Positions 190 through 25,417 are shown, counted from the stretch's first letter. The stretch is DNA of 25,562 nucleotides from Candidatus Helarchaeota archaeon (GCA_029838215.1 JALGVI010000078.1:1-25562); one strand, 5' to 3'. Translations and numbers: made by a program. The notes: generated by a model from the letters alone, not told the origin.

Positions 190-1029
190 GTGATGAAGAA
201 GAAAGAAGCTCATTTCACGACTGCGGATGGTTTAAAAATATATTATCAAGTCTGGGAACCGAACACGCCTAAAGCCATCGTTCAAATAGTTCATGGATTT
301 GGAGAACATTCTGGTCGTTATTCAAATGTCGTTGAGAAATTAGTCCCCGTTGGTTACATGCTCTATGCAACTGATCACCGAGGTCACGGCAAATCGGAAG
401 GTGTTAGAACATACGTGGATTCTTTTAATCAATTCGTTAAAGATCAAAGAATGTTTCACGAAGTCATTCGAAATGACCAACCGAACCTCCCAATTTTCAT
501 GCTAGGACACTCCATGGGATCCTTCATTGCGGCGCATTTCGCATTTAAACATGAGAGTCTTTTGCAGGGACTGATTCTATCAGGAACTGGTGTCCTGCCT
601 GGTGGCTTTTTAAATCTCGTCGCCGCAGCTTCCTTACCGGTGCTCAGAATAATGGCATTCTTCACTCCCAAACTTCGCTTGAACGTGTCACTCGGGAGTG
701 GATTGTCTCGCGATCCGGAAGTCCGAAGAGCTTATGAAAGCGATCCACTTGTCGTGAAAACCATTACAGCAAAACTGGGTTTTGAAATGATAAATGCCGT
801 TACAAAAATGAAAAGAATGATCTGCAAGTTACGGCTTCCTCTATTAATTCAGTGTGGTTCCGAAGATTGGATTGCGCGTGGCATTAAGGAAATTGAAAAA
901 CAATTGGCGATGGAAGACAAGACAATTCGCATCTATAATGGATTGCGGCACGAGGTCTACAATGAATTAGAGGAAGATCGAGAAAAAGTCTTAAACGATC
1001 TTGTCCACTGGTTAGATTCGCACGTTTAG
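190..1029 (+). CDS. Alpha/beta hydrolase, lysophospholipase/monoacylglycerol lipase-like
   Basis: HGFGEH motif, DHRGHGKS, nucleophile elbow GHSMG, and C-terminal catalytic His in GLRHEVYNE. Stop overlaps the convergent polB stop by a few bases. Confidence 0.92.
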   Translation: MMKKKEAHFTTADGLKIYYQVWEPNTPKAIVQIVHGFGEHSGRYSNVVEKLVPVGYMLYATDHRGHGKSEGVRTYVDSFNQFVKDQRMFHEVIRNDQPNLPIFMLGHSMGSFIAAHFAFKHESLLQGLILSGTGVLPGGFLNLVAAASLPVLRIMAFFTPKLRLNVSLGSGLSRDPEVRRAYESDPLVVKTITAKLGFEMINAVTKMKRMICKLRLPLLIQCGSEDWIARGIKEIEKQLAMEDKTIRIYNGLRHEVYNELEEDREKVLNDLVHWLDSHV

Positions 1030-3278
1030 ATTTCCAGCTTTTTAAAGCGTTTTGTTTCTTCCGATCCTCCAAAATCGGTGAGATTCTGAAATGCCCGTTT
1101 TAGCAAGGCAATGTATGCTTCGACATCATATCGCGTTGAGGTTGCAAGTAATTGGCGCACGCAAACGCGGTTGGATGGAATTTTGGACTTGATATTCGTC
1201 AGTATGTATTGGACGTTTTCTCCCGGCTCGATCTTGATTCCCAGGGCGTGTAATTGTCGAGCAGCGATGGCTTGGCGGGATGACCCTTTATATTTCGCGG
1301 GATGTCGCGAGATCCGCATCGTGATCAGGAGGTCCTCAAGAGGATGGTTGCGTTTACGTATCTTGTCGATGTATTTTTGAAGGATCTTTTTTCGCACGAT
1401 GGGCACGAGTCTTTTGAAGTCGTTGCTGTTATTGGCGTGGCGGGCAAAATATTGGATCATTTCGTGTTGAGCTTTTTTTATTAGTTTAGGGGTGTCTCGT
1501 CGCCTGACTTCGAGTCCGCGAACCTTGATGCTTCCATCCGTGAACACGCCCCAATAATGATTCAGCGTTCCGATGGCACGGTTTGCACGCGTTGGTAAGA
1601 ATAAGACAAACTTGTACTTTCCATCATACTCTAGCGGAATTTTCGTGGCAGTTTCTACTTCCTTGCAGAATTCTTCGTGGTCTTCAGGCGTGCTTGAACC
1701 GTTTTTTAACCATAGTGAATCGACGATCCCGTGGATGACTTCATAACCTCGCTTGCGAGCGATTTCTGCTGACCGCAGGAGAAGCTCACGTGAATATGCC
1801 GTGACAGCTTGGTGTCCTTCGATCCTTCCGAAACGTGCGTTTTTGAATCCTAAATATCCAAATGAAACAACCAGTATCCACTTTAGTGCAGCCCGTCGTT
1901 GCTTGTAAATTTCCTTCAAGGCAGGGTCTATATTAGGGTCCTTGCACATTTGCTTATATTTCACGCGTTTTCGCAAGACGAGGTCGAGTGCTCTCGGCAC
2001 GAGTCCTTGGCGTTTCTCGCAGGTAGGGAATCCAATTATGGGAACGATGAGCTTGGAATCGGGGCAACACTTGCAAAAAATGGTTTCCGGGCTTATATTA
2101 TATTCCCGCATTAATGTCGGGTACATGGACGTGAAGTCGAACTCCAAAACATTGTCATAAATATTTGGACGCGGCTCGAAAATGTGTCCGCCCTTGTCTG
2201 TTTCCATCAGCTTGTAAGCAGACTTGAAGTACTCTGCATTTTTTTTCACGGGTGGAATCAAGATGCCATCTTTCAAGGCGTGGTACATCTGAATGGACTG
2301 AAGTGCGCCCCCAATGGTGATTCGGGAGAGTCGTTGAAGTGGCACGCGCGACACGCGGGCGACTTCCACTAAAGCAGGTAATTTGCCGCCCCAAAAATGT
2401 CCCACGCTTTCGTCAAGATGGATTCGACCTGTCAAATAAAACTGGGAAGAAGCGCGATGGTACACGATGCCATAGGAGTGATAGGAATTCGATCCCCCAT
2501 CAAGCTTGAATTGGCATTGCTTGAGCGCTCGCGGGTCTCGACACAATTGTAATGCCCAATCCATGTTTAGATACGAAGCACGAGCGATCAAGTATGGAAA
2601 TAGGAAAGCGTCTCCTCTATCCGTGAATATGATGTCTGGATCTGTCTTCTTCACGAAATCTGAAAGTTCAAGCAGCAGATTTGGCTCTGAATCCCCATCA
2701 ATAACTATTTTTTCATCGCCAAGTCGGAAAGTTACGGAAGCAAGTTCATCGGAGAATCTCGGGACAATAAATTCTGACTTGGTCTTGATCGCCATTCGCA
2801 AGACTCGAACCGGAGGCAAGTCATACTCTATCTTTTCCTGCGAATCGAGGAGACTGACGGTTGAAAGCCTGCCATTTGATGTGGAATATTCACCGAAGGC
2901 AAGCGGAAATAAATCGTGATGATAGAGAAATCGCTGGCTTAGAGGGATGTCGATATCAAATAGCCGACACGCATCAACCCTTTCGAGGTCCGACACGACC
3001 TTTCTGAAACGCGTGATGGAATCACAGCGGACTTCTAAAACCAACCGCTTTCGCGTGTCGTTGATGTCCACGCGTTTTCGCACGAAATCCACGCTCTCAA
3101 CGTGAGGATGTGAAGCAATGGATCTCTTGAGATCTCTGAGTGACTTCGAATGCACGTGAAACACGGGCACGTAATCTGACTGAACTCTCTCCATGGTGCG
3201 ATTTTCCTTCAAGACCCAGAGTGTTATTCCTTTATGGTCCACGTTCAGATCGAGTAACCAGCCTTTTACTTCGCTCAC
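1026..3278 (-). CDS. polB2: Family B DNA polymerase, archaeal PolB2 (Dpo2) subgroup
   Basis: Motif A FDFTSMYP, motif B KWILVVSFGYLG, motif C HGIVDS (PolB2-type replacement of YGDTDS), KVRGLEVRRRD. Exonuclease motifs are degenerate. GTG start with GGAG upstream. Confidence 0.9.
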   Translation of the reverse strand: MSEVKGWLLDLNVDHKGITLWVLKENRTMERVQSDYVPVFHVHSKSLRDLKRSIASHPHVESVDFVRKRVDINDTRKRLVLEVRCDSITRFRKVVSDLERVDACRLFDIDIPLSQRFLYHHDLFPLAFGEYSTSNGRLSTVSLLDSQEKIEYDLPPVRVLRMAIKTKSEFIVPRFSDELASVTFRLGDEKIVIDGDSEPNLLLELSDFVKKTDPDIIFTDRGDAFLFPYLIARASYLNMDWALQLCRDPRALKQCQFKLDGGSNSYHSYGIVYHRASSQFYLTGRIHLDESVGHFWGGKLPALVEVARVSRVPLQRLSRITIGGALQSIQMYHALKDGILIPPVKKNAEYFKSAYKLMETDKGGHIFEPRPNIYDNVLEFDFTSMYPTLMREYNISPETIFCKCCPDSKLIVPIIGFPTCEKRQGLVPRALDLVLRKRVKYKQMCKDPNIDPALKEIYKQRRAALKWILVVSFGYLGFKNARFGRIEGHQAVTAYSRELLLRSAEIARKRGYEVIHGIVDSLWLKNGSSTPEDHEEFCKEVETATKIPLEYDGKYKFVLFLPTRANRAIGTLNHYWGVFTDGSIKVRGLEVRRRDTPKLIKKAQHEMIQYFARHANNSNDFKRLVPIVRKKILQKYIDKIRKRNHPLEDLLITMRISRHPAKYKGSSRQAIAARQLHALGIKIEPGENVQYILTNIKSKIPSNRVCVRQLLATSTRYDVEAYIALLKRAFQNLTDFGGSEETKRFKKLEI

Positions 3279-4067: not shown

Positions 4068-5048
4068 TCAAACAAATCGAGAAATGCTTGTTTGCACCAC
4101 GTGAAAGTTTTTTGCCGCTTTTCGAAGCCGTTTCAACCCATTTTCCAGTCGACTTTTGCTGAAACGTTTTCCGATGAAATGTGCCACTGCATTCAGGTTT
4201 GGATGATGAAACAATGGCGTGAATTTCATGGTTATGGGATGCAAGAAATAATTACGGATGCGTGCCGGATTCCACTCGATTTCCAGTCTTTTGGCAGCAA
4301 GGAAGTTTTCGATTGTTCCATGAGTTTGAATGGCTTTAAGTCCTTTTTTTGGACCAATTCCCTTGATTCCCGGATTGAAATCCGTGCCTATTAGCAAAGC
4401 AATATCTATGAGTTGTTCTTGCGTGATTTCGTGCCGTTTTAATGTTTCTTTCAATCCGTAATATTTGAACGTGTTCGTGTTAAAATTAAACTCGCGGATC
4501 ATGTAATGTGAGCCGAACAGGAGTGAGTCGTGATCTTGGCTTAGTGTTGCACGGGCTTTTTTTTCGATGACGAGTCTGGCACACTGGGCTTCTGCGTCGG
4601 ACGGAGCGCGACATACGGCGATTCCCATTGTCTTCAATAATTCGATGGTCTCAACTATGATGTAATTAAACGTGAAAGATAAGTCCTTGAAGAGTTCTCG
4701 TCCTTTCTTCACGTTTCCCTTTGTCGTATAGAAATAATGCCATTTCCAAGTATTTACTAATCGTTCGATCTTCCATGACGGTGTTACCCTTTTTTCTCTT
4801 ATTGGCATTCCATCAAATACCATGATTGGCTGGACATGATTTTCCAGACTATTTATGATGAAATAGAAAATCCCGAAAAGGTGAGAGACCGGGCGTCCCT
4901 CCTTATCTTTAAGCATTCTGTCTTGCTTGCGGATTTTTGTCAAGTATTTAAAAATTAAATTCGTTCCATCCACGGCGATTCTCGATCTTGCAATGTCATC
5001 AAAATCTCTTTCATGAATGTTCAATAATGGTTCGAGATTGCATCCCAT
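4068..5048 (-). CDS. fen: Flap endonuclease 1 (FEN1/XPG family), divergent, with C-terminal PIP box
   Basis: IAVDGTN, SHLFGIFY, VFDG, APSDAEAQCA, SQDHDSLLFG, GTDFNPGIKGIGPKKG (H2TH); terminal QTSISRFV resembles a PCNA-interacting motif. Confidence 0.92.
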   Translation of the reverse strand: MGCNLEPLLNIHERDFDDIARSRIAVDGTNLIFKYLTKIRKQDRMLKDKEGRPVSHLFGIFYFIINSLENHVQPIMVFDGMPIREKRVTPSWKIERLVNTWKWHYFYTTKGNVKKGRELFKDLSFTFNYIIVETIELLKTMGIAVCRAPSDAEAQCARLVIEKKARATLSQDHDSLLFGSHYMIREFNFNTNTFKYYGLKETLKRHEITQEQLIDIALLIGTDFNPGIKGIGPKKGLKAIQTHGTIENFLAAKRLEIEWNPARIRNYFLHPITMKFTPLFHHPNLNAVAHFIGKRFSKSRLENGLKRLRKAAKNFHVVQTSISRFV

Positions 5049-5063: not shown

Positions 5064-5534
5064 TCATTCAATGAGTTTTCGTTTGAATTGAACATTCGCA
5101 AAGAAACTAGTCATGATGTGATTAATTCTATGAAGGAGAAAACCTGTTAAATCCGCCACGGTCAGCACGTAATGGCGAATCTCTTGCAAATCACGCACGA
5201 GAATGAATTCCATGAAGAATCCTTTTTTAGAAAGATTGAAAGTGGTGGACGGTGGTAAAAATGGTGAAATAAAACGCTTGAATGTTTTTGCTTGAAGATA
5301 AACCTTCTTATTGTCATTCCTGAATTCTTCTTCTCCAATCAACTCAATATTCAGATAGATGAGTTCTTCGAAAAGTGCTCGACAGATCTCTACGGTTCCG
5401 ATAATCACTTGATCTCTCGAGCGAATCACGTGTGCCAGTTCAAGCAAGTCAACGTGGCTATCTTCTTCTATCCATCGAAGTTCAAACTGTTTTTGGTTCA
5501 CGTCATTACAAGCGATCGGTAAAAAAACGGTCAT
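5064..5534 (-). CDS. Hypothetical soluble protein (~156 aa)
   Basis: ORF track gives 5064..5546, but GGAGG sits 5 nt before the ATG at 5534, so that start is preferred. Operonic position between the 321-aa gene and fen. No recognised motif. Confidence 0.7.
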   Translation of the reverse strand: MTVFLPIACNDVNQKQFELRWIEEDSHVDLLELAHVIRSRDQVIIGTVEICRALFEELIYLNIELIGEEEFRNDNKKVYLQAKTFKRFISPFLPPSTTFNLSKKGFFMEFILVRDLQEIRHYVLTVADLTGFLLHRINHIMTSFFANVQFKRKLIE

Positions 5535-6471
5535 CACCACCTCCACATGCTCGAAGCTGCACGTAATTTAGTAATTCGCGTCGTTTCAATCTTCTAATCT
5601 TTAGGTGTGAATAAATCCCTTGCAACTGCGCCTGCAAAACTTCTGCTTGGAAAGATACACGCTCCCATGTTTTCGTGAGATTTTTTGCATTAAGATTAAA
5701 CCAAGTGGGGCTCGTCGCAAAGGTCGTTATTAACAAACGTCCTGTTCTTAATTTTGTCAAACCGTGTTCTTCTGCACCAACCGTTCCTGTTTCAGAATCA
5801 CCTTCGTCGTCGATTGGAGACACTATTACATGATATGCAAAGGGAATGCGCGTGCTATCAAGAGTCTTGATGAATTGGAAAATTGGTGATTCATCCGACT
5901 GATTTTTTGGCACCACGTGAAGCGGGATTTCATGAATCTCTAATGTACATTCTGCGTGTAAGCGAGAATCTGACCGATAGAATAGTACTGATGATGATGA
6001 GTGTTGAGAAACGTGAGGTGGATGCCAAAAAAAATATTTAACGTTCGTCATTGGTGGAAGGATTTCCAAATCCTTCCATGGAAATAATTTTAACATTAAT
6101 AAAGAGCGATTTCGGGGGAAGAGGATGATGATGTAGCAGAAGACCGTGACAATAAAAGCCCCGATTCCCAATGAAATTCCCAAGAACATGTTGATTATTG
6201 AAGCCACACCGAAAATGATTAAGAATGACAGAATGGAAGCACCAATAATGAAAAAGAGTATAAATGTGGATAAAAAAGTGCTTTGTCTTGCTTGACTCTG
6301 GTTTAAATGGAAGTGTTTAAAGCTTCTAAATGATGTTTGAGCCCAGATATCAAGATTCATACTCCTACGAAATAAACTGAACGCTGAAACCGCAGAATGC
6401 GCCACGGATTCATCCGCAATATTATGACTTGGTGGAAATTCATCAATATTAGCATCTGTATCGTGCGACAT
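5506..6471 (-). CDS. Membrane protein: two TM helices followed by a soluble alpha/beta domain
   Basis: Hydrophobic stretches at ~aa 65-118; AGGTGA before the ATG; 7-bp gap from the upstream gene. Confidence 0.8.
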   Translation of the reverse strand: MSHDTDANIDEFPPSHNIADESVAHSAVSAFSLFRRSMNLDIWAQTSFRSFKHFHLNQSQARQSTFLSTFILFFIIGASILSFLIIFGVASIINMFLGISLGIGAFIVTVFCYIIILFPRNRSLLMLKLFPWKDLEILPPMTNVKYFFWHPPHVSQHSSSSVLFYRSDSRLHAECTLEIHEIPLHVVPKNQSDESPIFQFIKTLDSTRIPFAYHVIVSPIDDEGDSETGTVGAEEHGLTKLRTGRLLITTFATSPTWFNLNAKNLTKTWERVSFQAEVLQAQLQGIYSHLKIRRLKRRELLNYVQLRACGGGDDRFFTDRL

Positions 6472-6478
6472 GACATGT

Positions 6479-6967
6479 TCACCTACCTTTAAAGAGATTT
6501 AGGAGACCTAACCCCACGTATAATCCAAAATAAACCACCCATGTGATGTTTCCAATGTAGTAATATGGATTGAGAAAAAGTGGAAGTAGCATGAACACGG
6601 TCAAGAAGAGCCAAATTAATGTCCATGCTAAAAAAGCATATCGAATAAGAGAATATTGCTTCAGGACTGTAATTAATGCTTTAATGCGCGTAGAGCTTGA
6701 TTTTGCCTTCGGGATGGCGTAATGCCATCGCAGTTGTTCGATTTCATTAATGAATTGTAGCGTTTTTCTATCGATGTTTTGTGTTGAAAGTGTAGTTCTT
6801 TTTTGAACTACTTGAGCTGGAAATTCTCTTTTTTCTTTAAGATTAGATGAGAAAACATCACGCTTGCCCAAGCAATTTCGGATTGTCATGATTCCGATGA
6901 TGACCAATAGAATAATGGGCCACGTTGCTACGAGAAATGCAAAAATGATTATAAATGACTCGCCCAT
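6479..6967 (-). CDS. Membrane protein (162 aa, ~3 TM helices)
   Basis: One N-terminal hydrophobic helix and two C-terminal ones; GAGGT upstream; 9-bp gap from the upstream gene. Confidence 0.8.
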   Translation of the reverse strand: MGESFIIIFAFLVATWPIILLVIIGIMTIRNCLGKRDVFSSNLKEKREFPAQVVQKRTTLSTQNIDRKTLQFINEIEQLRWHYAIPKAKSSSTRIKALITVLKQYSLIRYAFLAWTLIWLFLTVFMLLPLFLNPYYYIGNITWVVYFGLYVGLGLLNLFKGR

Positions 6968-6976: not shown

Positions 6977-7261
6977 TCAAGGAAAGTTCGTAAAGAACCA
7001 GAAGATTCCATAAAAGACCGAAAATACTGGGACAAAATCACCGAATAACCAAGCATAAACGAACCAGTTCATGCCGAGAAGGATTAGAAATGATGGTAAT
7101 GATCTGAAAGCGCGCCAGTTTCCATGTCCGATAGCAGAATAAGCCGCAACGAAGAACCCCACTATGAGTCCGATATTCACCAGAAACACGCAAAACATGG
7201 ACCAGAAATAGAATCTAAATAAGAAATCGTTCAAGAGTCCAAACAGATCTATCATGACCAT
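6977..7261 (-). CDS. Small hydrophobic protein (94 aa), helix-basic loop-helix, pilin-like architecture
   Basis: Two hydrophobic segments separated by HGNWRAFRS; GGACGTGA SD-like sequence upstream; first gene of a five-gene operon. Confidence 0.75.
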   Translation of the reverse strand: MVMIDLFGLLNDFLFRFYFWSMFCVFLVNIGLIVGFFVAAYSAIGHGNWRAFRSLPSFLILLGMNWFVYAWLFGDFVPVFSVFYGIFWFFTNFP

Positions 7262-7371: not shown

Positions 7372-9600
7372 TCAAGCAAGTGGAATTCCAATTAGGCGTT
7401 TTAATTCGAATAGTAATGTATTACTTTCGGTTTTTGCAGTTTCCTGTTGTAATTCGTTAGCAAATTGTGAGATGCAATCAAGTGACCAGACGCTATAATT
7501 TAAAAACTCCTCTAAATCTCCTTGCCCAATACGCACGTCCACGCTTACCTCTTTAATACGCTGGTAATAGTTTGGTATAGTGGATTGTAAGAAAGCACTG
7601 ATACCATTTACGAACCTATCTTCCCACGTGATTTTCTTTGATTCCTGAACATAAAGCCTTGCCATGAATTCAATGAGAGCGTGTTCCGTTGTTAAAAATG
7701 GGAGATTTTTAATAATAAAAGTAGCACTGCTTGGAGTAAGATATGATTCCACGACAATTCTACCCAAATCTGTACACTTGTACTTTCCATCAAGTGTTCG
7801 TATTAAAAATAAATCTGCCATTAAGGAATTTAGAACGAATTCCTTGTTTAATGCTTGAGTTAAGATTACAGATGTCAGCGTTGCGTTTTGTCGGAATCCT
7901 TCTAGTGCCAGACGAATTAGGTGAGGGCAGAATATCGTGCCTTCGCGTCCTATTCGGAAATCCGCACACGAACATGATATGTGGTCCCTATGAATGACCG
8001 CAGTATTGATCGTGGGATCTCGAAAGATGCCTTTAATAGAAGTCCTATCAAAAAAGAAATCCACGATTTCATCTTTTGAATAATTTTCTGCACGAGTGAA
8101 AAAATGGGGATGTGAAAACTTCCGGATTGTTTTATTTAAAGAGACCGTGCTGAGCTCAAGGAACTCACTTACTGATGCATCGGGATATCTTGCTGAGAGT
8201 TCATGCCACCATAACGTTTGCTCAAAAACATTTTCGATCTCTTCCTTAGTCAATGCACCATTATCATGAACGTGGACCAAGATTTGTTCTTTCAGAACCT
8301 CTAGATTGTTAAATTTACTCGTTATGTTGTTATATTTTGGCTCAAAGTGGTTATTGACCTTGCGGAAAAATAACTGAATGACTTGATGTTTTTCCTCCGT
8401 ATTCCGAACCAGAACGGTCCCCACACAATGACCACTTGAATATTGAGGGCGTCCCGCACGACCGATAATTTGATGAAAGAGATTTGGTTCAAGCTCACGA
8501 GTGGAAAGAGCTAATGGAATGATGGTTCTGGTTTGTGGTGTTGTTTCATAGGTGGGAACGCGGATTTCAACATCCTTGATTATGACAGATCGCACGGGCG
8601 TGTTGATTCCTGCTGCCAGCGTGGATGTACAGGTAATGATCTTTATTGGATGCTTGCGAATGGCCTCTTCAATGAGTTGTCGAGACCTTAATGAAAGTCC
8701 ACCATGATGGAATGCAACGCCTTTTGCAAGAAGTTCGAGAAGTTCTGGATCTATGCGATACTCAAGTAAAAAACGTGCGGGATCAAATGCACGTTGTAGC
8801 GTCAATTCTTCTTCAGGCGTGAGAAGCTGATGTCTCTCAATATATCGAGCCAACTTTTTTGCTATTGATTCTGTTTCGCGTCGGGTTTGCACGAATAGAA
8901 GGATGGGGTGGGCAAGCTCAAGCAGGAGCTCCTCGATCGCACGTTGTTTATTCGGTGTTTCGATTATGTTATATGCTATTGGTACGGGTCGATAAGAACT
9001 CTCAATGAGCGTGGCGTTCATCCAAGAGGCGATTTCACTTGCATTTGCAAGCGTTCCGGATAGTCCAAGAATTTGGGCAGAAGGAAACTTGGCACGGATG
9101 CGGGCGATCACGCTTTCAATCCTAGGACCGCGGCGTGGATCATTTATTATTTGAATCTCATCCATTACAAAAACCTGAATATCTTTCAACCAAGGTGCTT
9201 TTTGACGTAGATACGTGTCAAAGCGTTCGTATGTCATTATGAGATAATCATTCTTTTCAATGTCCTTTTTATCGATAGTGAAGTCTCCCGTCGAAATCCC
9301 AATTTTTAGCCCTTCACCCCGTAACTCTTTCGTAAATGCCTCATATTTTTCATTTGCAAGTGCTTTAAGCGGTACCAAATAGACTACTTTTTTGCCTTTA
9401 TTGAAGAGTTGCCGAAGACATGCAACCTCACCAATGAGTGTTTTACCTGAGCCTGATGGTGAAGAAATCAGGAGATTTTTTCCATCTAAAAGTCCACTTA
9501 AAAGTGCTTCACATTGCACGGTATTAAAATACGTGATGAGCTTGCGTGATAAATATTGCTTTAGCCTATTCGAAATCGGGAAGTCATTCACTGCTTTCAT
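7372..9600 (-). CDS. hel308: Ski2-like SF2 helicase, Hel308/Hjm-like, with inserted SWIM zinc finger
   Basis: Q motif TVQCEA, Walker A SPSGSGKT, VPLKALANEK, TGD, DEIQ, RGPRIE, AFHHGGL, TLAAGINTP, motif VI QIIGRAGRP; CSC-x12-CPH at 7921-7974. Confidence 0.88.
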   Translation of the reverse strand: MKAVNDFPISNRLKQYLSRKLITYFNTVQCEALLSGLLDGKNLLISSPSGSGKTLIGEVACLRQLFNKGKKVVYLVPLKALANEKYEAFTKELRGEGLKIGISTGDFTIDKKDIEKNDYLIMTYERFDTYLRQKAPWLKDIQVFVMDEIQIINDPRRGPRIESVIARIRAKFPSAQILGLSGTLANASEIASWMNATLIESSYRPVPIAYNIIETPNKQRAIEELLLELAHPILLFVQTRRETESIAKKLARYIERHQLLTPEEELTLQRAFDPARFLLEYRIDPELLELLAKGVAFHHGGLSLRSRQLIEEAIRKHPIKIITCTSTLAAGINTPVRSVIIKDVEIRVPTYETTPQTRTIIPLALSTRELEPNLFHQIIGRAGRPQYSSGHCVGTVLVRNTEEKHQVIQLFFRKVNNHFEPKYNNITSKFNNLEVLKEQILVHVHDNGALTKEEIENVFEQTLWWHELSARYPDASVSEFLELSTVSLNKTIRKFSHPHFFTRAENYSKDEIVDFFFDRTSIKGIFRDPTINTAVIHRDHISCSCADFRIGREGTIFCPHLIRLALEGFRQNATLTSVILTQALNKEFVLNSLMADLFLIRTLDGKYKCTDLGRIVVESYLTPSSATFIIKNLPFLTTEHALIEFMARLYVQESKKITWEDRFVNGISAFLQSTIPNYYQRIKEVSVDVRIGQGDLEEFLNYSVWSLDCISQFANELQQETAKTESNTLLFELKRLIGIPLA

Positions 9601-9677
9601 TCAATTGCCCCAATCTATGGTGATTAAAGGATTGCAAGGATAAGTTTTTAAAGTCAAATATTGACCTTAAAAAAATT

Positions 9678-14973: not shown

Positions 14974-14996
14974 CTTATAAAGGCTAGTTTTTACCC
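14974..14996 (+). promoter_or_regulatory. Promoter with shared motif: CTTATAAA-ggctagt-TTTTACCC
   Basis: Same geometry; 25 nt before the ATG of the 803-aa gene, with GGTGA in between. Confidence 0.7.
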
Positions 14997-15021
14997 CCAT
15001 TGCTTCGACTGGTGAAATATC

Positions 15022-17433: not shown

Positions 17434-18077
17434 TGAGTATTGAGTTAGATGGAATTGATGAAGGTTGGAGAGCCGAGAAAAAATCGGGTCGAAATTATAA
17501 AGGGCTATTGGTATTAACGAGTGGCATTTTGGTTGTCGTAATTTCAATAGCGATGGGCTTTATCTTTGCATTAAATCCTGCTTTTCAGATAACGCTTGTT
17601 GAGCTTATTTTTGCGGGCATTCAAACACTGGTTTTGGTATGTTTCGGTTTTTTAACCCTTGCACTCTTAATTGTAATGGTATTAATGAATGCAGATCTGG
17701 CACAAGGACGAGGGGCACTGAGAGCAACTCAATTTACACTCATAGCTGCGCTCATTGGTTTTATAATATATGATGTTTTCTTAAATGAAATCTTTGGTTT
17801 CCACGTGATGAGTATTTCAACAGGAAATTTGGTTTTTCCCTGGATCATATCCGTCATCCAAATCATCATATGGATTTCACTTATCTTATTGTTTCTCCTA
17901 CTTGCAATTCAAGTCACCTTAAAGGCTATAAGTATCGATAAATCCACGGGAATGACCTATAATCTCATTATCTGCGTGATGAGCATCGGGATCGTCTTCA
18001 TTCTAAACATCATTTATATTAACTACTACGGCGTGCCGATAATAATTCCTTTTAATCCTTCTGGGGTGATTCCGTGA
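17430..18077 (+). CDS. Polytopic membrane protein (215 aa, ~5 TM)
   Basis: Five long hydrophobic segments; ATGA overlap with the upstream gene. Confidence 0.85.
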   Translation: MMSIELDGIDEGWRAEKKSGRNYKGLLVLTSGILVVVISIAMGFIFALNPAFQITLVELIFAGIQTLVLVCFGFLTLALLIVMVLMNADLAQGRGALRATQFTLIAALIGFIIYDVFLNEIFGFHVMSISTGNLVFPWIISVIQIIIWISLILLFLLLAIQVTLKAISIDKSTGMTYNLIICVMSIGIVFILNIIYINYYGVPIIIPFNPSGVIP

Positions 18078-18328
18078 GCTGGATTTACATGCTTGATTTA
18101 TTCATGACTTTAACGCTATATTATGCGCGGGCAATTTTCCTCATGCTTGTATTTCTTCTATCTGTTTCGTATGCTTATGAAGGATTCAAGATCATTGCGG
18201 ATGTTAACCCCAAACTCGTGGGTAAGAGCGTGTTGTATAAACACCTGATTTCTCTTTTAATTCTCGTCTTCATCGATTTCATGTTTTGGCTAATCTTCAA
18301 AATTCCGCTTCACAGTTGGACAAGGTGA
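18074..18328 (+). CDS. Small two-helix membrane protein (84 aa), VirB2/TrbC-pilin-like architecture
   Basis: Hydrophobic helix, GFKIIADVNPKLVGKSVL loop, second hydrophobic helix; GTGA overlap with the upstream gene. Confidence 0.75.
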   Translation: MSWIYMLDLFMTLTLYYARAIFLMLVFLLSVSYAYEGFKIIADVNPKLVGKSVLYKHLISLLILVFIDFMFWLIFKIPLHSWTR

Positions 18329-18332: not shown

Positions 18333-21300
18333 ATGACTGTATTGTTACAACAATTACTGGATGATATTCAAGAACAAGGTAACATTCATCATGCCTTTGA
18401 AAATCAAGCAACACGTATTTCACTTGTATATTCCCTGAAAAAACTTGAGCACTATTCTGTCTTTTGCATTTTCATCTTGAAAGATGCGGGGCACGTGGAA
18501 TCCCTTCATGATCGGAATGTACGGGAGATCATTAACGAAGTTGAACACGTAAAAAAACTTATCTTGGCTGGTGAAATTAGCGCTTTACGCCTTCCCGATA
18601 TTCCTAGATTTCAAGTCCGAACTCTTTCATTTTTCGATTTAAGAATTCATGATCGTCTTCGACTTCAACACGTTTCTTTAGAACATGATGGCAAACCCGT
18701 GTTAACTTTCATCTTTCCCGCCCTAATTACAAATGTCCCCAGCATTCATCGAACACTAGCGTGTGCCGAGTGCCGTTTAGATCTAGTTCCTGCTCCCTTG
18801 GTTTCGGAATTTATTCGAAACATGAATGCAGAAATCGTTGAAAAATCAGCCCACATTTATGATGCCTCTAAAGATCGACACGTACAATGGAATAATCGGG
18901 TTAATTTAGTCGGAATGATTCTGACTCTGGTATTTGCGGGATTCACGACACCACTAATGATCCTCGCCCCTTTTTTCAAGATGTCTCCTTTATTCTTCAT
19001 TGACTTGTATTGGATGTTGATTTCATTTGACGCTATTGGAATGATCGGCCATGCCATTTTGCGCCATAAAGCATATCTACGTGAAATCCTTGCAGAATGG
19101 AACCATCCGCAACTGTTCGACATTGCTAGGGGGTCTAACCCTCCTGAAAGACATGTCGAACCAAATATCGAAAAAACAGATCTCTCCGAAAACATTGTTG
19201 ACTACGGGCAAGTTCGGGATGAGATCGATGATTCGAAACGTAATATCCATCACGGATCATTAACCCGAACATCAAAAAGAAGTATTATCGTCCCAAAGAA
19301 AGCTAACACGATAAAAAAGCAGGAATCAACTCAAATTCATTGGCATGCTTTTACGGGGGAGTATTCTCTCATCCAAACAATCCGAAAGGAATACGAATCT
19401 GCGAAATCTGCTCAAGAAGAGAAAAAATTTCGCATTCATTTTCTCAATATAATACAGGGAACCGTGGCCTATAATTGGCTTCAACTCGGAAAGAAAATTC
19501 CAAAGTCCCGTAAGCTGGATCCCGTAGAAAATACATTAGACTCATTAGCGCGCTTGCAAGCACGTGGCATGAGCCATCCGTATAAAAGCCTGTTACAACA
19601 GTTCCTTGAAGTGCTGTCGCATAATCGAAGTCTATTTGCTGAAGAGATGCAAGTGATGCTTTCACGCCTTGAACAAATGCTTATTCGTTTAGGAGTTCTG
19701 GCGGGCAGGATCGAGAAACAAACACCGATTTCTCATGACGATGAGTCGTCTTTTCCATTAAATGAAGGAGTTATTAATGAAGACCTCACAAAAATTCCAG
19801 ATCTGCGTGTTCAGCGATATCTAAATAATAAACCAAAAACACGCTGTCGTAAAGAACAGATCGAGGATATGCTCATGCAGGCGAACCGCTACCTTCACGT
19901 AGGGGAAGACGATGCAATCAAGGATGTTCTAAAAGGATTTCCCGGTCTCCTATTCAAAGAAGTCTTGATAAATTCTGCTAACATTGAAGAAAATCGATGC
20001 CATACTTTTGAGCAAATTTTTAAGAAGAAGGGTGTAATGCTTACCGAACAACAACTCCTAAAATCAATATCAAGCATCAATAGTGCTTTATACGAATATC
20101 TGAAAGCGTTTTACAAAGATTTCCAAGAAATACAAGCCAAAAAAAAGGCACCTGGCGAAACTCTCTATAAAATCTGCCAACAAGCATGGAAAAAAATGAG
20201 CATGAATCTTTATGCTTCACCTGTTAAAGATGAATTCCCGATACGCAGCAATGAAATTGGAATGGAAGAAAAAACGCAAGAAGAAAAGAGACTCACGCCA
20301 ATCATTCCTGTCACCGATAAAGATATCATAAAAAATGAATTAAAAGGACAATTCATCGAAATAAAGACAATCGCCAAGTTAAATCTAGTTCTAAATGAGA
20401 CCAGTAAAGATTATCCCATATGTATTGTTTCATATAGATCAACATCCATGCCGCAATTCGTTGAATTACTGAAGATAAGAAAGGAATTTCGCGATTTGAT
20501 GTTTTATCTGTTAAACGTTGAGGAATTGAATGGAGACGATGATATATTTCAAGTCGTAGACTCTCCAAAAACCCTGCTCAAATATCGCACGCTCAAATAC
20601 ACTCATGAATACGTGGATTTTCAGGATTGTCATGATTTACTTAAGAAATTCATGCGTGAATTGAATGACTACAAGCATTCAAAACTTGTCAAGTCTGGCG
20701 TTCCTATTAATGGCAAATCCGGTCCGAAGGAAACAGACACAACCACGAATTCAATTGAAGAAATCTTTGATCCGAATTCTCCCGTCATTCATATCAAGGA
20801 TGAACGACCTTGGTTGCACCACATCAGACACAATACCAACCCTGTTTTCGTTTTACTTCATTCTGGCACGAACAACGCATATATCGAAGCATTGAACGCG
20901 ATAAAGACACTTGACATCCCAAATAATATCACGATCATTGAAGCCGACCAGCGTCTTGGATTCGTGCAAGAGACTTTTCCTGAAGAGGTCGACCTGGCAA
21001 TCTTAAAGCTGGATGGTGAAACCCGCGAAACCCTGAGTATAGATCAACTACGTGGAGCTCTCGAGATTAATGTTGATGCAGTTGGTACTAAAAAAACTCC
21101 GAAAAAAGAAGAAAATGAAGATGTCAAGAAGTTGGACGTCCTAAAATTCAAGAGGATTGTCGTAGACGGAACAAACGTCTTCAATTTCATAAAAAACGAC
21201 TTACAACAATTTGGCGAAATCGTGGATTTTAAGATTTTTCTGAAGTTACGGGAGTTGTTATACGATCTCGGATTCGAAGATGTTATCATTTACTTTGATT

Positions 21301-22397
21301 CAAACACGTATCATAATTTCTCAAATAAAGAGAATAAACAACTTAATAAACTCATCAAGACAGGTCGTTTCCGTCAATCAGCATCAGGTGAAAAAGCCGA
21401 CCCGCACATCATTACGATGGCAACAGGACCCATTCCCGGCTATATTCTTTCTCGAGATAAGTTTTGGAATTATGATGATGATTTCCAGACGAGATCCTCT
21501 GAATTTATCAAGAGACTCATTGCTTTCGAAATAACGGATGGCTTGATTCATTTTGAGCCAAAAGATAAGAAATTGGCAAATACCCCAATATTTAAAAAAC
21601 GGTATAAACTATTTGATGCATTTGAAATGGGTATAGAGGCAATTTCTAAAAGGAATAAGAATGTCAATGAGAAGAAAGCCAAGAAAAAGAAAAATCACTC
21701 AAAACCAAACAAATCTGTCATGAATACTACCGTGCAGACAGAAAATGAACCTGTAGAAAAACCCATTCCGAATGAAATCGAGATGCATGCATGTATAAAG
21801 GCTCTATCATTTCTGAGACAGAATGCCTTTCATGATGCGAAGGCTTTCAAAAAACGTTTTGAGAATGAATATGATTTCTTATTAGGGAATGAGTACATTA
21901 TCCGGGAACGCGCGGGTTCTTCGGATAGACCTCACGTAAACATCACTACAAAAGGAATTGCATTTGTCAAGCGATTTTTTATTGTTGATATTATTTTAGG
22001 TGAGTTTGATCCCATTAGTGGACCCGAAATCATCTATCCTACGGCATACAACACGGGAGATTTCGCCAACCAACCCTTAGCTGGTTTGGAAACACGAGCA
22101 AGTCTAAAAAAGGTTCTTCAGAATTGTTTTGACAAGCATTCTTATCTTCAGAGCTTTCAGGACGAACTCCAAGAATTCAACTTGATTTATCGCACGTGGA
22201 AAATAAAAAATAATGCACTCCCCCGGGGTGAAGCCGTTTTTGGCGTGCTAATTTTCTGTCGTAAGTTATTTAATGAAGAATTTTCTCACGCGTTCTCAAA
22301 GGAGTTAAAACAAGTTCTCAATGGATTTCAACCCACGCTTGATTATCGTAGTGAACTGGTAGAATTCATTCAAAAAATTGGGAGGGATTTGCTTTAA
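18333..22397 (+). CDS. 1354-aa multidomain membrane protein: 2 TM, helical domains, two thioredoxin-like folds, NYN/Regnase-type PIN ribonuclease, winged helix, C-terminal uDENN/longin domain
   Basis: TM at aa ~190-243; RIVVDGTN (D945), KADPHI (D1023), ILSRDKF (D1042); NITTKGIAFVK; EFDPISGPEIIY and LPRGEAVFGVLIF. Confidence 0.85.
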   Translation: MTVLLQQLLDDIQEQGNIHHAFENQATRISLVYSLKKLEHYSVFCIFILKDAGHVESLHDRNVREIINEVEHVKKLILAGEISALRLPDIPRFQVRTLSFFDLRIHDRLRLQHVSLEHDGKPVLTFIFPALITNVPSIHRTLACAECRLDLVPAPLVSEFIRNMNAEIVEKSAHIYDASKDRHVQWNNRVNLVGMILTLVFAGFTTPLMILAPFFKMSPLFFIDLYWMLISFDAIGMIGHAILRHKAYLREILAEWNHPQLFDIARGSNPPERHVEPNIEKTDLSENIVDYGQVRDEIDDSKRNIHHGSLTRTSKRSIIVPKKANTIKKQESTQIHWHAFTGEYSLIQTIRKEYESAKSAQEEKKFRIHFLNIIQGTVAYNWLQLGKKIPKSRKLDPVENTLDSLARLQARGMSHPYKSLLQQFLEVLSHNRSLFAEEMQVMLSRLEQMLIRLGVLAGRIEKQTPISHDDESSFPLNEGVINEDLTKIPDLRVQRYLNNKPKTRCRKEQIEDMLMQANRYLHVGEDDAIKDVLKGFPGLLFKEVLINSANIEENRCHTFEQIFKKKGVMLTEQQLLKSISSINSALYEYLKAFYKDFQEIQAKKKAPGETLYKICQQAWKKMSMNLYASPVKDEFPIRSNEIGMEEKTQEEKRLTPIIPVTDKDIIKNELKGQFIEIKTIAKLNLVLNETSKDYPICIVSYRSTSMPQFVELLKIRKEFRDLMFYLLNVEELNGDDDIFQVVDSPKTLLKYRTLKYTHEYVDFQDCHDLLKKFMRELNDYKHSKLVKSGVPINGKSGPKETDTTTNSIEEIFDPNSPVIHIKDERPWLHHIRHNTNPVFVLLHSGTNNAYIEALNAIKTLDIPNNITIIEADQRLGFVQETFPEEVDLAILKLDGETRETLSIDQLRGALEINVDAVGTKKTPKKEENEDVKKLDVLKFKRIVVDGTNVFNFIKNDLQQFGEIVDFKIFLKLRELLYDLGFEDVIIYFDSNTYHNFSNKENKQLNKLIKTGRFRQSASGEKADPHIITMATGPIPGYILSRDKFWNYDDDFQTRSSEFIKRLIAFEITDGLIHFEPKDKKLANTPIFKKRYKLFDAFEMGIEAISKRNKNVNEKKAKKKKNHSKPNKSVMNTTVQTENEPVEKPIPNEIEMHACIKALSFLRQNAFHDAKAFKKRFENEYDFLLGNEYIIRERAGSSDRPHVNITTKGIAFVKRFFIVDIILGEFDPISGPEIIYPTAYNTGDFANQPLAGLETRASLKKVLQNCFDKHSYLQSFQDELQEFNLIYRTWKIKNNALPRGEAVFGVLIFCRKLFNEEFSHAFSKELKQVLNGFQPTLDYRSELVEFIQKIGRDLL

Positions 22398-23425
22398 TGA
22401 CAAGATATAAACAAAAAATCGTCTTTTTTGGACCTTCAAATGCAGGTAAAACATCCTTGCAGAAATTCTTCTGGGAAAAAAAGACATACGATGAGATTAA
22501 AGACTTACCACCAACAAAAAGCTATGATTATTCAGACAGGCCACTACGTTTTGGTCCAATAGAAATATCTTCCCTAGATCTTGGCGGACAATCAAGCCTC
22601 ATCAAGCAATGGCTAGATGATGATGCTGAGTTTCGCTGTTTTGAACACGCGAATGTCGTGATATGCGTTTTGGATTTCTCCGATGAATTGCTCGGTAAAA
22701 GTAACTTTCTCCAAAAAATGGAAGAAATAAAACAACTGTTGCGATTATTAATCGCGTCTTTGCGTGTTCAGGTTTTGCAATATCAAGACGTGGACTTGTT
22801 GATTTTCCTTCACAAGTGGGATCGCGTGGTTGAAATTAAGAAGAATGAGCAAGATCTTCGTGAATTAATCATTTCAAATCTTAAGCAGATTGAAAAAGAA
22901 GAAAATTTCGAGAATATCTTGACAGAAGGGAAAAAGAATTCAAAATATGAGAAAATATTGCCATTCTCAATTAATTTCAGGGGATTTCACTTTACATCCA
23001 TTAAAGACTTGCGATTCTCACCCCGTCTGGCTTTAAAGAAAGTCCTTCCAAGGACATCTCAATTTGTCATTGCTTGTAATCAATTTCGAAGAAATTTTTT
23101 GAAACTGTCGCAATTTTTCTCCTTGTTTCTCATCGATCAGAACCTACTCGACATTGAATCCGTTCAATTTCCCGTCTTGCATGATTTTGAGAGCATTAAA
23201 CAATTCACATTTCGCACGCTTTTATCGTGTTTTGATTTGGAAACTGTCACGTACGTAGTCGTCCGTCAAGAAAATGGATTAGGCCCACTTGATATTTTTC
23301 TTCTCAGGGTTAATCCTGACATCTATTGTTTGCTCGTGGCGAAAACGACGAGCCAAGATAAAACACTACAACTACTTCTCGAATTCAGGCGGTCAATTCA
23401 AGCCATTGATTTGATTTATGAGTGA
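22397..23425 (+). CDS. Gtr1/RagA-family small GTPase with C-terminal roadblock/longin-like domain
   Basis: G1 GPSNAGKT, G2 PT, G3 DLGGQ, G4 HKWD, G5 TSIKD (RagA has DCGGQ, HKMD, TSIWD); ~130-aa C-terminal domain; TAATG overlap with the upstream gene. Confidence 0.88.
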   Translation: MTRYKQKIVFFGPSNAGKTSLQKFFWEKKTYDEIKDLPPTKSYDYSDRPLRFGPIEISSLDLGGQSSLIKQWLDDDAEFRCFEHANVVICVLDFSDELLGKSNFLQKMEEIKQLLRLLIASLRVQVLQYQDVDLLIFLHKWDRVVEIKKNEQDLRELIISNLKQIEKEENFENILTEGKKNSKYEKILPFSINFRGFHFTSIKDLRFSPRLALKKVLPRTSQFVIACNQFRRNFLKLSQFFSLFLIDQNLLDIESVQFPVLHDFESIKQFTFRTLLSCFDLETVTYVVVRQENGLGPLDIFLLRVNPDIYCLLVAKTTSQDKTLQLLLEFRRSIQAIDLIYE

Positions 23426-23431: not shown

Positions 23432-25417
23432 TTGTCGATCCCCGTGGAAACGCGTCCATTTTTCCCATTCGCCAAAGTTCGACCCGGGCAGGCAACGCTC
23501 ATCACGAAACTATACCAAGCAGTAAAGACGAACAAACACTCCTGTTTTGATGCAGCAAATGGGATCGGAAAGACGGTTTCCGTGCTTGCAAGCACCTTAC
23601 CCGTAATTCTCGAGCAAGGAAAACTTCTGATTTATTGTGCACGCACGCATTCCCAGATGAATCGAGTATTGGATGAAATTCAATTAATCAATGAAAAAGC
23701 ACCATTAAAGACTTCAGCAATTTCTTTAAAGGGAAAAAAGGAAATGTGCATTAACCGCACGGTTTTGGATGCCGTGACAAGCTCTGCGGATCTGATTGAT
23801 TATTGTAACAGTCTAAAGGGGCGGAAACCATCCGAACAATGTCCATTTTTCCGAAATTTCCGCGAACAAAAAGGAAAAATCACTAAACTCTTTAATAAAG
23901 CAGTTTGTTCTGATCAAGTATTGATTTCTGAAGGATATCAGATGCAAATTTGCCCTTACGAGCTTTCTAGAAGCCTTCTCTCCCGTGTCGATGTCGTAAT
24001 CACGACGTATAATTACCTGATACACCCTGAAATTCAACGGCTTTTTTTTAATGATATCAATCGGACAATTTCCGAGTGCGTCATCGTGTTTGATGAATCA
24101 CATAACCTTCCGGATATTGCCATGAATGCCAATTCTGATTATATCTCGTTAAATTCCGTGCTTCGAGCCAAAAAAGAGTTGAAAACAATGGAAGGCTCGC
24201 ACGAGGTCATTGAAAAGGTGTTGGATTTCTTCGCCGATTATCTCGAACAAGAGCTCAGGCGTTATGAATCGTCAGGAGCACGATGGTCTGAAGAACACGG
24301 AATAAATGAAATCATTCTTCGGCAGAAACTTGTTGCCCTTGGTTTAAACGAAGGCATCATTCAAGATGCAATTGCTTTAGGGCGCCAATATCGACTTGAA
24401 AAAATAAAAATGTTCGAAGATGCCGGCACGAAGAAACGCGTGAATTCTTCTCTCAATAAATTTGGCCGATTTCTTAGTCTACTCGATCAATCTTTGGATG
24501 ATCATTGCTATTTTCATGAGTTGGAATTCGTTAAAGGAAAAAAACAGACGATCGTGCGTCTCCATGCCCGTTGCCTTGATGCTCGTCCAATTTTGGTGCC
24601 ATTATTCAACGGTGTAGTCTCCTGCCTTTCAGGTACGCTTCGTCCCGTAAAGGCATTCTGTCAGCTCGTGGGATATCCCTCATCTTATACTCAGGGAGTC
24701 ATTCCAAGCCCATTTCGATTCCAGAATATTTGTTGCCTTGCCATGCGGGATATTTCAACACGATATGCCGTGCGAACCCCTCAACTTTATTCCATCTTGC
24801 GCGGTCACCTGCGGGAAGTAATCGAAAATACACCCGGAAATGTTGGCATCTTTTGTGCTTCTTACGAAATATTGAGCAAGATATTGAACTACTCGTTCCG
24901 TCGTTATCTGAATACGGATTTGAACATTCCAGTATTTCGTGAATATCAAGATCTTGAGCGAAGTTTCTCAAGCACACAAAATGAAGAAATGATACAAAAG
25001 TTCAAGAAGATAGGGCGGGCAGGCAAGAAGGCCGTGCTATTTGGCGTGTGTGGGGGACGAAATTCTGAAGGTGTTGATTTTCCGGGCAATGAAATGAGGA
25101 CCGTTGTTATCGTGGGGTTTCCCCTTCTCCGACCTTCAATACGACTAGAAGCCCTTGAGACATTTTACAAGCAAGAATTTGGAGAAGAATTAGCACGGTT
25201 ATATGCATATCAAATCCCTGCCATTCGAAAATCCAACCAAGCTGCTGGGCGTCCCATTCGTAAAATCGATGATCATGGGGCAATTATTTTTCTCGATGAG
25301 CGTTTCACCTATAAAAAAGTGCGAAAATATCTGGCTTCGTGGCTTACTGATACAATGCGTGTCATTCCAAATGAAAAAGGTGTCATTGCAGCCCGGCTAA
25401 AAGAATTTGATTTTTAG
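23432..25417 (+). CDS. xpd: XPD/Rad3/DinG-family 5'-3' helicase with Fe-S cluster
   Basis: Q motif RPGQ, ANGIGKT, four Cys (EMCIN, DYCNS, EQCPFF, QICPYE), DESHN, SGTL, SEGVDF, QAAGRPIR. Confidence 0.92.
   Translation: MSIPVETRPFFPFAKVRPGQATLITKLYQAVKTNKHSCFDAANGIGKTVSVLASTLPVILEQGKLLIYCARTHSQMNRVLDEIQLINEKAPLKTSAISLKGKKEMCINRTVLDAVTSSADLIDYCNSLKGRKPSEQCPFFRNFREQKGKITKLFNKAVCSDQVLISEGYQMQICPYELSRSLLSRVDVVITTYNYLIHPEIQRLFFNDINRTISECVIVFDESHNLPDIAMNANSDYISLNSVLRAKKELKTMEGSHEVIEKVLDFFADYLEQELRRYESSGARWSEEHGINEIILRQKLVALGLNEGIIQDAIALGRQYRLEKIKMFEDAGTKKRVNSSLNKFGRFLSLLDQSLDDHCYFHELEFVKGKKQTIVRLHARCLDARPILVPLFNGVVSCLSGTLRPVKAFCQLVGYPSSYTQGVIPSPFRFQNICCLAMRDISTRYAVRTPQLYSILRGHLREVIENTPGNVGIFCASYEILSKILNYSFRRYLNTDLNIPVFREYQDLERSFSSTQNEEMIQKFKKIGRAGKKAVLFGVCGGRNSEGVDFPGNEMRTVVIVGFPLLRPSIRLEALETFYKQEFGEELARLYAYQIPAIRKSNQAAGRPIRKIDDHGAIIFLDERFTYKKVRKYLASWLTDTMRVIPNEKGVIAARLKEFDF

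Follow-up and report, generated by a model that had tools for sequence, protein, structure and literature searches.

Candidate VirB4-derived membrane platform encoded with a second set of recombination enzymes in Asgard archaea

The window analysed here, a 25,562-nucleotide (nt) stretch of DNA from a Candidatus Helarchaeota archaeon (JALGVI010000078.1), is an entire contig (C34, 25.6 kb) of a metagenome-assembled genome (MAG; GCA_029838215.1, hereafter G000) that comprises 3.62 Mb in 170 contigs, with a completeness of 94% and a contamination of 6%. It encodes a dense set of recombination enzymes interleaved with membrane proteins. We tentatively interpret it as the form that, in Helarchaeales, is taken by a gene cluster spread Asgard-wide and inherited with the chromosome, in which a membrane platform derived from VirB4, the motor of conjugation (type IV secretion), may couple the passage of DNA to a private recombination toolkit. 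The VirB4-type folds of two of its proteins, orf471 and orf321, the SWIM finger of its helicase and the NYN domain in a homologue of orf1354 are new, and full-text literature searches returned no paper describing the cluster. Gene calls on the window were made with Pfam and NCBIfam, and transmembrane (TM) segments were predicted by hydropathy.

Divergent second copies of recombination enzymes

A preliminary description of the window had placed six repair and recombination genes in it, and Pfam and NCBIfam matches locate all six there. G000 holds 16 members of these repair families; at least six of them fell within 24.4 kb in 0 of 300,000 random placements, and an analytic chance estimate for the same clustering is about 7e-7. 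With the exception of the DNA polymerase PolB, the enzymes (RadA-, RadB-, Hel308-, XPD- and FEN1-like) are divergent extra paralogues. A second homologue of each repair enzyme lies elsewhere in G000 at 25-34% identity (tblastn), and for fen, radA, hel308 and xpd these outside homologues are the canonical ones, with higher scores on curated models than the copies in the window.

The FEN1-like flap endonuclease (4068-5048, minus strand; XPG_N and XPG_I domains) reaches 257 bits on TIGR03674, under the cut-off of 352, whereas the canonical copy on contig C11 reaches 449. The RadA-like recombinase (13653-14834, minus strand), composed of an HhH N-terminal domain (HHH_5), a Rad51 domain and a lysine-rich C-terminal tail, scores 219.5 bits on NF003301 (cut-off 259), compared with 459 and 366 bits for the copies on C122 and C131, and 199.7 bits on TIGR02236 (cut-off 361). 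Judged by fold and motifs, it is a member of the RadA/Rad51 family and not an equivalog. A RadA-like protein in public databases that is 99% identical to it bears the name Candidatus Helarchaeota. The RadB-like RecA-fold ATPase (11976-12653, minus strand; Pfam Rad51, 1e-10) scores 97 bits on TIGR02237 and the other RadB-like protein of G000 (C111) 107 bits, both under the cut-off of 172; RadB-like is used here as a name only. The XPD/Rad3-family Fe-S helicase (23432-25417, plus strand; DEAD_2 and Helicase_C_2 domains) passes TIGR00604, a subfamily model, with 312 bits (cut-off 247; 325 bits for the copy on C88), while the other cluster enzymes stay under NCBIfam equivalog cut-offs.

The Ski2/Hel308-type helicase (7372-9600, minus strand) matches Hel308 models with 304-328 bits over about its N-terminal 470-480 residues only, compared with 797 bits for the canonical copy on C57. 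It fails the Hel308 equivalog model (304 bits, cut-off 1200) and lacks the five-domain ratchet/HLH C-terminal architecture. Its C-terminal half carries a SWIM-type zinc finger (CxC..CxH) that is invariant in ten cluster helicases. One relative's cluster helicase (L056:2722-5439, plus strand) is 905 amino acids (aa) long and has a faint TIR_2 match in Pfam. The canonical Hel308 gene (C57:20712-23039, plus strand) matches the models from its first residues and has no ATG, GTG or TTG before codon 37, which points either to an error in sequencing or to a start codon of an uncommon kind.

Several of the genes had been described as deviating from canonical motifs. The deviations are real and mostly mild, motif C of PolB being the sole clearly degenerate case. 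RadA-like and RadB-like proteins retain Walker A (GPQGSGKS and GEPGTGKT, respectively) and Walker B motifs; the helicase retains motifs I and II (DEIQ in G000, DEIH in relatives); the XPD-like protein retains DESH and, in alignment with the canonical copy, the four Fe-S cysteines; and the FEN-like protein retains its acidic residues and ends in a PIP-like box (QTSISRFV). Even between families whose proteins are 30-50% identical, all five enzymes conserve their catalytic motifs, a sign of purifying selection on function. In Protein Data Bank (PDB) sequence searches the top matches were archaeal RadA, FEN1 and XPD, and for the helicase ASCC3 and archaeal Hjm; kinship to eukaryotic Dmc1, Mer3, EXO1, GEN1, RTEL1 or FANCJ was not supported by these searches.

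Phylogenetic trees place the RadA-like and XPD-like proteins in clades apart from their canonical orthologues. A clade with an SH-aLRT support of 91 unites all canonical Helarchaeales and Lokiarchaeia RadAs and one Woesearchaeote, and the Helarchaeales cluster copies of RadA lie outside it. The cluster copies of XPD form one clade (support 100), and canonical Helarchaeales XPDs group with Lokiarchaeia XPDs (100). Branching inside the cluster clades tracks genome families, as expected under vertical descent. Both XPD types, cluster and canonical, occur in each of G002, G004 and G006, and both RadA types in each of G001 and G002. In G001, which is 94% complete, the cluster-type XPD alone was found at E<1e-40, with no canonical XPD, and may be the sole XPD of that genome.

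Gene neighbourhood and VirB4-derived membrane proteins

Short gaps or overlaps between repair and membrane genes had also been reported, and the gene coordinates confirm them. The minus-strand run from the helicase to the FEN1-like gene has gaps of -41 to 110 nt (FEN1-like/orf160, 15 nt; orf160/orf321, -41; orf321/orf162, 7; orf162/orf94, 9). RadB-like and orf471 are separated by 2 nt, and RadA-like and orf211 by 50 nt. On the plus strand, the series orf803, orf215, orf84, orf1354, Rag-like GTPase and XPD-like shows gaps of -4, -4, 4, -1 and 6 nt. TM segments are predicted in orf321, orf162, orf94, orf471, orf211, orf803, orf215, orf84 and orf1354.

The neighbourhood is conserved across Asgard genomes, both in 16 related Helarchaeales loci from genomes and metagenomes, many of them cut by contig ends, and in other families. 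Orthologues of the RadA-like protein within the same family and order are 45-68% identical and occur in 16 of the 16 loci, where they are accompanied by XPD-like (13 loci), RadB-like (13), SWIM-Hel308-like (11), orf471-like (9), orf321-like (9), orf162-like (6), Rag GTPase (6), orf803-like (6) and FEN-like (5) genes. G001 is the long assembly closest to G000; its cluster lies on an 844-kb contig and keeps the whole order FEN, orf321, orf162, helicase, orf471, RadB, RadA, orf803, 2-TM hairpins, giant protein, Rag, XPD. Another cluster locus lies on a 340-kb contig with housekeeping genes on its flanks. Housekeeping genes border several of the loci, and no integrase, transposase or repeat boundary was found in the annotated flanks of seven loci. 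The helicase/orf162/orf321 trio and the pair of RadA-like and anchored protein recur across loci, and a FEN-like gene stands inside the cluster in G001, G002, L054, L057, G065 and G265.

An initial view of the cluster as specific to Helarchaeales, given that the RadA-like protein at E<1e-50 was confined to the order and one 3-kb contig, was dropped, as rearranged versions occur in three other Asgard families. With the SWIM half of the helicase as query, ORFs (open reading frames) of ~735 aa were found in 89 of 301 Asgard genomes. On the complete chromosome of G065, a member of another family, a FEN-like gene, an orf471-like gene abutting RadB-like, SWIM-Hel308, RadA-like and orf321-like genes and the VirB4-fold part stand together. 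In G265, RadA-like, XPD-like, VirB4-fold, SWIM-Hel308, RadB-like and FEN-like genes share a single strand and fit into ~16 kb. A RadA paralogue, RadB-like and SWIM-Hel308 genes lie within ~25 kb in two genomes of Lokiarchaeia (G007 and G016), accompanied in G007 by an orf321-like gene. A scan of genome contigs returned only two already known loci and one canonical RadA.

One VirB4-related membrane protein is encoded by orf471 (10558-11973, minus strand), with which RadB-like is, by position, translationally coupled. An AF2 model built from 19 sequences (pLDDT 80, pTM 0.65) shows four TM helices and an alpha/beta domain. In a Foldseek search against the PDB the top 14 matches were all TrwK/VirB4 (E 2e-9). 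VIA-align, a structural aligner independent of Foldseek, superimposed the model on residues 15-397 of VirB4, its N-terminal domain, with Z 18.9 and a root-mean-square deviation (rmsd) of 3.9 Å over 279 residues; the next matches were chains of type VII secretion systems (ESX-3, Z 12; ESX-5, Z 10), and unrelated rows scored at most 7.7. All ten rows of an Atlas fold search were conjugation ATPases of VirB4/TraG/HerA type (TM 0.53).

With only 24 representatives found among 1.84 billion, the orf471 family is very small. An orf471-like gene adjoins RadB-like in nine loci and, in addition, in G005 and G065, and the two genes abut or overlap even where RadA-like identity is only ~48% and in another Asgard family. 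In genus g3 (G002 and G004), the orf471-like gene directly follows a gene for a ~589-aa SSB/RPA-like OB-fold protein (L038:11057-12826, minus strand; L039:954-2720, plus strand), at the place that RadB-like takes in other genera. By its predicted fold, this neighbour is a second tie of orf471-like proteins to single-stranded DNA. Upstream of RadB-like in the window, and overlapping its start by 4 nt, lies a gene for a 74-aa zinc-ribbon protein (12650-12874, minus strand) that was absent from the preliminary gene list. Its DUF5817 match in Pfam (1e-4) is under the cut-off; DUF5817 genes stand upstream of RadB-like in L031, L054 and L055 as well.

The second VirB4-related protein, orf321 (5506-6471, minus strand), combines a TM segment with the N-domain of a protein of VirB4/HerA fold. 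Its homologue in L030 and L054 is the N-terminal third of an 832-aa protein, and in G001, L055 and L031 the product of the first gene of a split pair (~300 + 530 aa). The folded model of an 832-aa relative (pLDDT 73) matches the C-terminal domain (CTD) of VirB4 with Z 27.5, DndH-C with 27.2, HerA with 25.4 and TrwB with 22.5, and ends in a C-terminal winged helix. A fused 838-aa paralogue with the P-loop sequence GDHPERRS is encoded elsewhere in G000 (C45:8397-10913, minus strand), with no other cluster genes nearby; a search of the genome for AAA_10 was empty. At the site of the relatives' ATPase-fold part the window encodes orf160 (5064-5546, minus strand), a soluble protein with no homologue in related loci and nothing meaningful in Pfam. 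Its candidacy as a remnant of the lost part was rejected, as it has no similarity to the 535-aa C-terminal part.

The remaining membrane and associated proteins recur to varying extents. A 3-TM protein near the helicase, orf162 (6479-6967, minus strand), has homologues in L029, G001, G002, L055 and L057. Two small 2-TM hairpin proteins, orf94 (6977-7261, minus strand) and orf84 (18074-18328, plus strand), are paralogues that both match a 193-aa protein of L029; 2-TM hairpin proteins of 87 aa (G001) and 79 aa (L055) occupy the orf84 position. All of these hairpins consist of two helices and a short basic loop and match no Pfam family. Two-helix hairpins are widespread, and the architecture alone is not specific. 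The gene downstream of RadA-like, orf211 (12967-13602, minus strand), encodes a protein whose C terminus carries a membrane anchor. A homologue is present in L029, and in G001, G002, G004 and G006 RadA-like is followed by a positional counterpart (250-267 aa) that bears TM segments at both ends. The polytopic orf215 protein (17430-18077, plus strand; 6-7 TM) has two paralogous homologues in L029 and no Pfam match.

A predicted surface protein, orf803 (15022-17433, plus strand), has an N-terminal TM or signal segment and a C-terminal anchor, with homologues in L029, G001, L054 and L055; an Atlas feature search gave weak Ig-like leads only, and such searches with orf471 and orf1354 yielded nothing of use. 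Upstream of orf803-like genes, G001 (L021:14530-15201, minus strand) and L055 (12121-12783, minus strand) encode a ~220-aa protein of about six TM segments with HExxH in a hydrophobic segment, which may be an M50-type intramembrane protease. In L031, a 266-aa neighbour has weak Peptidase_M50 matches. The giant TM protein orf1354 (18333-22397, plus strand) has two TM helices at residues ~193-238 and an NYN-nuclease-like region at ~930-1090. It aligns over its full length with a 1372-aa protein of L029 (28% identity) that matches Pfam RNase_Zc3h12a (NYN) at 1.2e-9, over the cut-off; a PDB sequence search with orf1354 was empty. Proteins of 950-1334 aa take its position in G001, L030, L054 and L055. 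The following gene, for a Rag/Gtr1-like small GTPase (22397-23425, plus strand; Gtr1_RagA, PF04670, 7.8e-12, 45.6 bits, cut-off 22), is coupled to both orf1354 and XPD-like. A Rag GTPase gene adjoins XPD-like in G001, L030 and L054, as well as in L055, whose end cuts the XPD-like gene; in L029 it stands beside the giant protein.

A possible DNA-handling apparatus and its alternatives

Because recombination paralogues are joined to VirB4-derived membrane proteins, the cluster probably handles DNA, and probably does so at the cell membrane. Possibly it serves DNA exchange between cells, and it may acquire DNA.

Several observations weigh against a VirB4-derived platform for DNA passage. The P-loop of the VirB4/HerA-fold protein reads G-x4-E/D-R-F/Q/S in seven of seven members; because it lacks GK[ST], the protein probably does not hydrolyse ATP and is probably no motor. 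In the window, orf321 supplies the N-terminal part only, and the ATPase-fold part is absent from the locus. Pfam searches revealed no ATPase of DUF87 type (HerA/VirB4 family) either in the window or on the 844-kb cluster contig of G001, nor did they connect orf215, orf84 or orf94 with VirB6/CedA or VirB2/CedA1. Neither a coupling protein (VirD4/TraG) nor a relaxase is among the Pfam matches of the window and seven loci, although divergent forms could escape; VirB6, VirB8 and VirB10 were likewise not identified. Finally, the accessory membrane gene set differs between families. The expectation of type IV secretion system (T4SS) components among the membrane ORFs holds for orf471 and the orf321 family, which are VirB4-like; orf215, orf84 and orf94 gave no family match in Pfam, and a search for a VirB4/HerA motor yielded the fold in the orf321 family with a degenerate P-loop.

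The closest functional parallels are the Ced system found in Sulfolobales and the Ted system found in Thermoproteales, domesticated T4SSs by which DNA is brought in for recombination repair (PMC9905601). Ted loci co-localise with Rad50 and HerA, which has been read as a coupling of import and recombination (PMC9905601). The cluster shares with Ced and Ted its archaeal chromosomal encoding, a VirB4-fold membrane-associated component and small 2-TM and polytopic membrane proteins, and with Ted the presence of recombination genes beside a membrane system. Unlike in Ced and Ted, however, the VirB4-fold protein of the cluster has no canonical P-loop, a separate VirB4 N-terminal-domain protein is coupled to the RecA-fold RadB-like ATPase, and the recombination genes are dedicated divergent paralogues instead of housekeeping copies; moreover, the Rag-like GTPase, the SWIM helicase and the giant NYN protein have no Ced/Ted counterpart. 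Because an active VirB4 motor is lacking, we do not file the cluster under Ced/Ted. Our preferred reading is a T4SS-derived membrane platform, coupled to a private recombination toolkit, that would be functionally akin to these systems without belonging to their family; in this reading we have somewhat less than even confidence.

A structural parallel is provided by the VirB3-VirB4 module of the inner membrane in bacterial type IV secretion (TrwM/TrwK of R388; PDB 7o42 and 8rtd). As in that module, the N-terminal TM helices of orf471 are followed by a VirB4 N-domain fold, and the relative's 832-aa protein spans the N-terminal and ATPase folds. Sequence identity to the module, however, is only 10-12%, orf471 lacks an ATPase domain and the P-loop of the full-length paralogues is degenerate. 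The enzymes share folds and catalytic motifs with archaeal RadA, RadB, Hel308 (Hjm), XPD and FEN1, but the helicase has its SWIM-finger region in place of the Hel308 C-terminal domains, and the tail sets the RadA-like protein apart from archaeal RadA. The cluster resembles the eukaryotic HELQ/RAD51-paralogue mediators in that, in a recombination context, a Hel308-family helicase occurs together with RecA-fold mediator paralogues and with a SWIM zinc finger, which may be like that of SWS1. No specific sequence affinity of cluster proteins to these mediators was found, however. The HELQ-BCDX2 interaction has been reviewed (PMC13623763). A 2025 study of Asgard RadA paralogues described two RadA clades; it left out sequences of high divergence and makes no mention of the cluster (PMC12722695).

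The cluster could also be a membrane-tethered genome-maintenance or anti-mobile-element system, in which an inactive VirB4/HerA-fold ring, the helicases and the nucleases would, in the manner of HerA-containing defence, detect or degrade foreign or damaged DNA at the envelope with no DNA exchange. Foldseek matches of the VirB4/HerA-fold protein indeed include the HerA partners in Sir2/HerA, DUF4297-HerA and TdpAB complexes, the orf1354 family contains an NYN nuclease domain, one relative's helicase has the faint TIR match, and PADLOC returned a generic HamB match for the helicase and type IV CRISPR DinG models for the XPD-like protein. The PADLOC matches, however, are at the level of helicase superfamilies, no HamA-type partner gene is present and seven of the ten scanned proteins were unmatched. 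Defence islands are typically patchy and fast-moving, whereas the cluster tracks taxonomy across families and has housekeeping flanks. In addition, recombination explains better than degradation why a flap nuclease is encoded together with a strand-exchange protein and a RecA paralogue of mediator type. We therefore regard a defence role as unlikely.

Somewhat less likely still is that the cluster descends from a virus or an integrated conjugative element domesticated long ago, of which replication and recombination genes and decayed transfer genes are left with no common present-day function. Archaeal integrated elements do carry VirB4 and HerA genes (PMC9259645), all cluster copies are long-branched and lie outside the canonical clades, and the P-loop decay together with the loss of the ATPase-fold part in the window would fit such an origin. 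Against it stand the composition of the contig, unremarkable for the genome, the annotated flanks of the seven loci, free of any integrase, transposase or repeat boundary, the conserved catalytic motifs of five enzymes, the presence of the cluster on a complete chromosome in another family and the conservation of the degenerate P-loop itself as G-x4-E/D-R.

We assign a similarly low likelihood to a lineage-specific back-up or specialised pathway made up of ordinary paralogous repair genes whose membrane neighbours are incidental. Asgard genomes are rich in paralogues, the two described RadA clades being an example (PMC12722695), and the accessory membrane genes vary between families. Incidental neighbours would nevertheless hardly account for the RadB-like/orf471 pair being kept at ~48% RadA-like identity and in another Asgard family, for the recurrence of the helicase/orf162/orf321 trio and of the RadA-like and anchored-protein pair, or for the VirB4-type folds, as opposed to random folds, of the membrane proteins.

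A binning artefact, in which a contig from another organism would hold that organism's only repair genes, is very improbable and a contaminated or chimeric bin was rejected: the contamination of the MAG is estimated at 6% and the window consists of one complete, short contig, but its GC content and tetranucleotide usage are normal for the bin, relatives hold both gene sets, the G001 cluster lies on a long contig, and the cluster proteins, because they are under equivalog cut-offs, would be atypical in any organism.

If the window does encode a VirB4-derived platform coupled to recombination, its parts could act as follows. The VirB4-derived proteins, the 2-TM hairpins and the polytopic and surface proteins would form an envelope complex at a site of DNA entry or exit, with the RadB-like ATPase docking onto orf471. 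The NYN nuclease would join the two helicases, which would have opposite polarities, in converting DNA to single strands, and the RadA-like recombinase could pair the DNA with the chromosome; the FEN-like nuclease might trim flaps via its PIP-like box, and the Rag-like GTPase might serve as a switch. In its most far-reaching form, which we consider speculative and improbable as a whole, the envelope platform, surface protein, Rag switch and private RadA/RadB/SWIM-Hel308/XPD/FEN1 set would import and recombine a partner's DNA. In such a system, programmed, sex-like recombination would have a forerunner among prokaryotes, and the helicase, RecA-paralogue and SWIM parts would prefigure the eukaryotic HELQ, RAD51-paralogue and SWS1 mediators.

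Provided that the cluster acts on DNA at the membrane, Asgard archaea would have in it their first candidate for a DNA-exchange and recombination apparatus, and how this lineage exchanged and recombined genomes matters for eukaryogenesis and for the question of how eukaryotic sex arose. Its evolution is also unusual in two ways: a conjugation motor has apparently been kept as an ATP-dead scaffold, with its N-terminal domain split off and paired with a RecA-fold ATPase, and a complete second set of recombination enzymes is held apart from the housekeeping set.

Promoters and flanking genes

The preliminary description had placed the cluster under one promoter motif, a claim that stands for a single divergent promoter region. 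Between RadA-like and orf803 (14835-15021) lie two mirrored TATA-N10-TTTTACCCCC arrangements. Across all 3.6 Mb of the genome there are just two copies of the 10-mer TTTTACCCCC, at 14888-14897 (minus strand) and 14989-14998 (plus strand), each ~10 nt after a TATA-like box; the 10-mer may be a shared initiator or operator. A weaker form, TATA-N(9-10)-TTTACCC, is present upstream of relatives' RadA-like genes. The other transcription units of the window are without TTTTACCCCC. The helicase is transcribed divergently from orf116 (9678-10028, plus strand), a gene for a small protein with a homologue at the same position in L029; their 77-nt intergenic region (9601-9677) holds a palindrome, GTCAATATTTGAC, between two TATA-like boxes, an arrangement that suggests a bidirectional promoter with an operator. 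Because this promoter differs, one motif is not general. The damage-response hexamer ANTTTC, weighed by eye in the promoters, is too short to evaluate and was dropped.

PolB, a PolB2-type family B DNA polymerase (1026-3278, minus strand; DNA_pol_B, 1.5e-35), adjoins the conserved cluster. It had been counted as a member of the module, but turned out to be an ordinary second Asgard PolB located outside it. On NF004416 it scores 370 bits, under the cut-off of 516, whereas the canonical PolB on C49 scores 1025 bits on a different PolB model. Its motif A reads DFTSMYPT, and its motif C, HGIVDS, has one of two aspartates left, compared with YGDTDS in the canonical protein. The type occurs in every genome of the order Helarchaeales, and in G001 the orthologue (58% identity) lies on another contig (C2), ~4 kb from a canonical RadA. 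The stop of PolB is overlapped by 4 nt, on the opposite strand, by a gene for an alpha/beta hydrolase (190-1029, plus strand; Hydrolase_4, 2.9e-66), which has a 54% identical paralogue on C125 and is apparently unrelated to the cluster.

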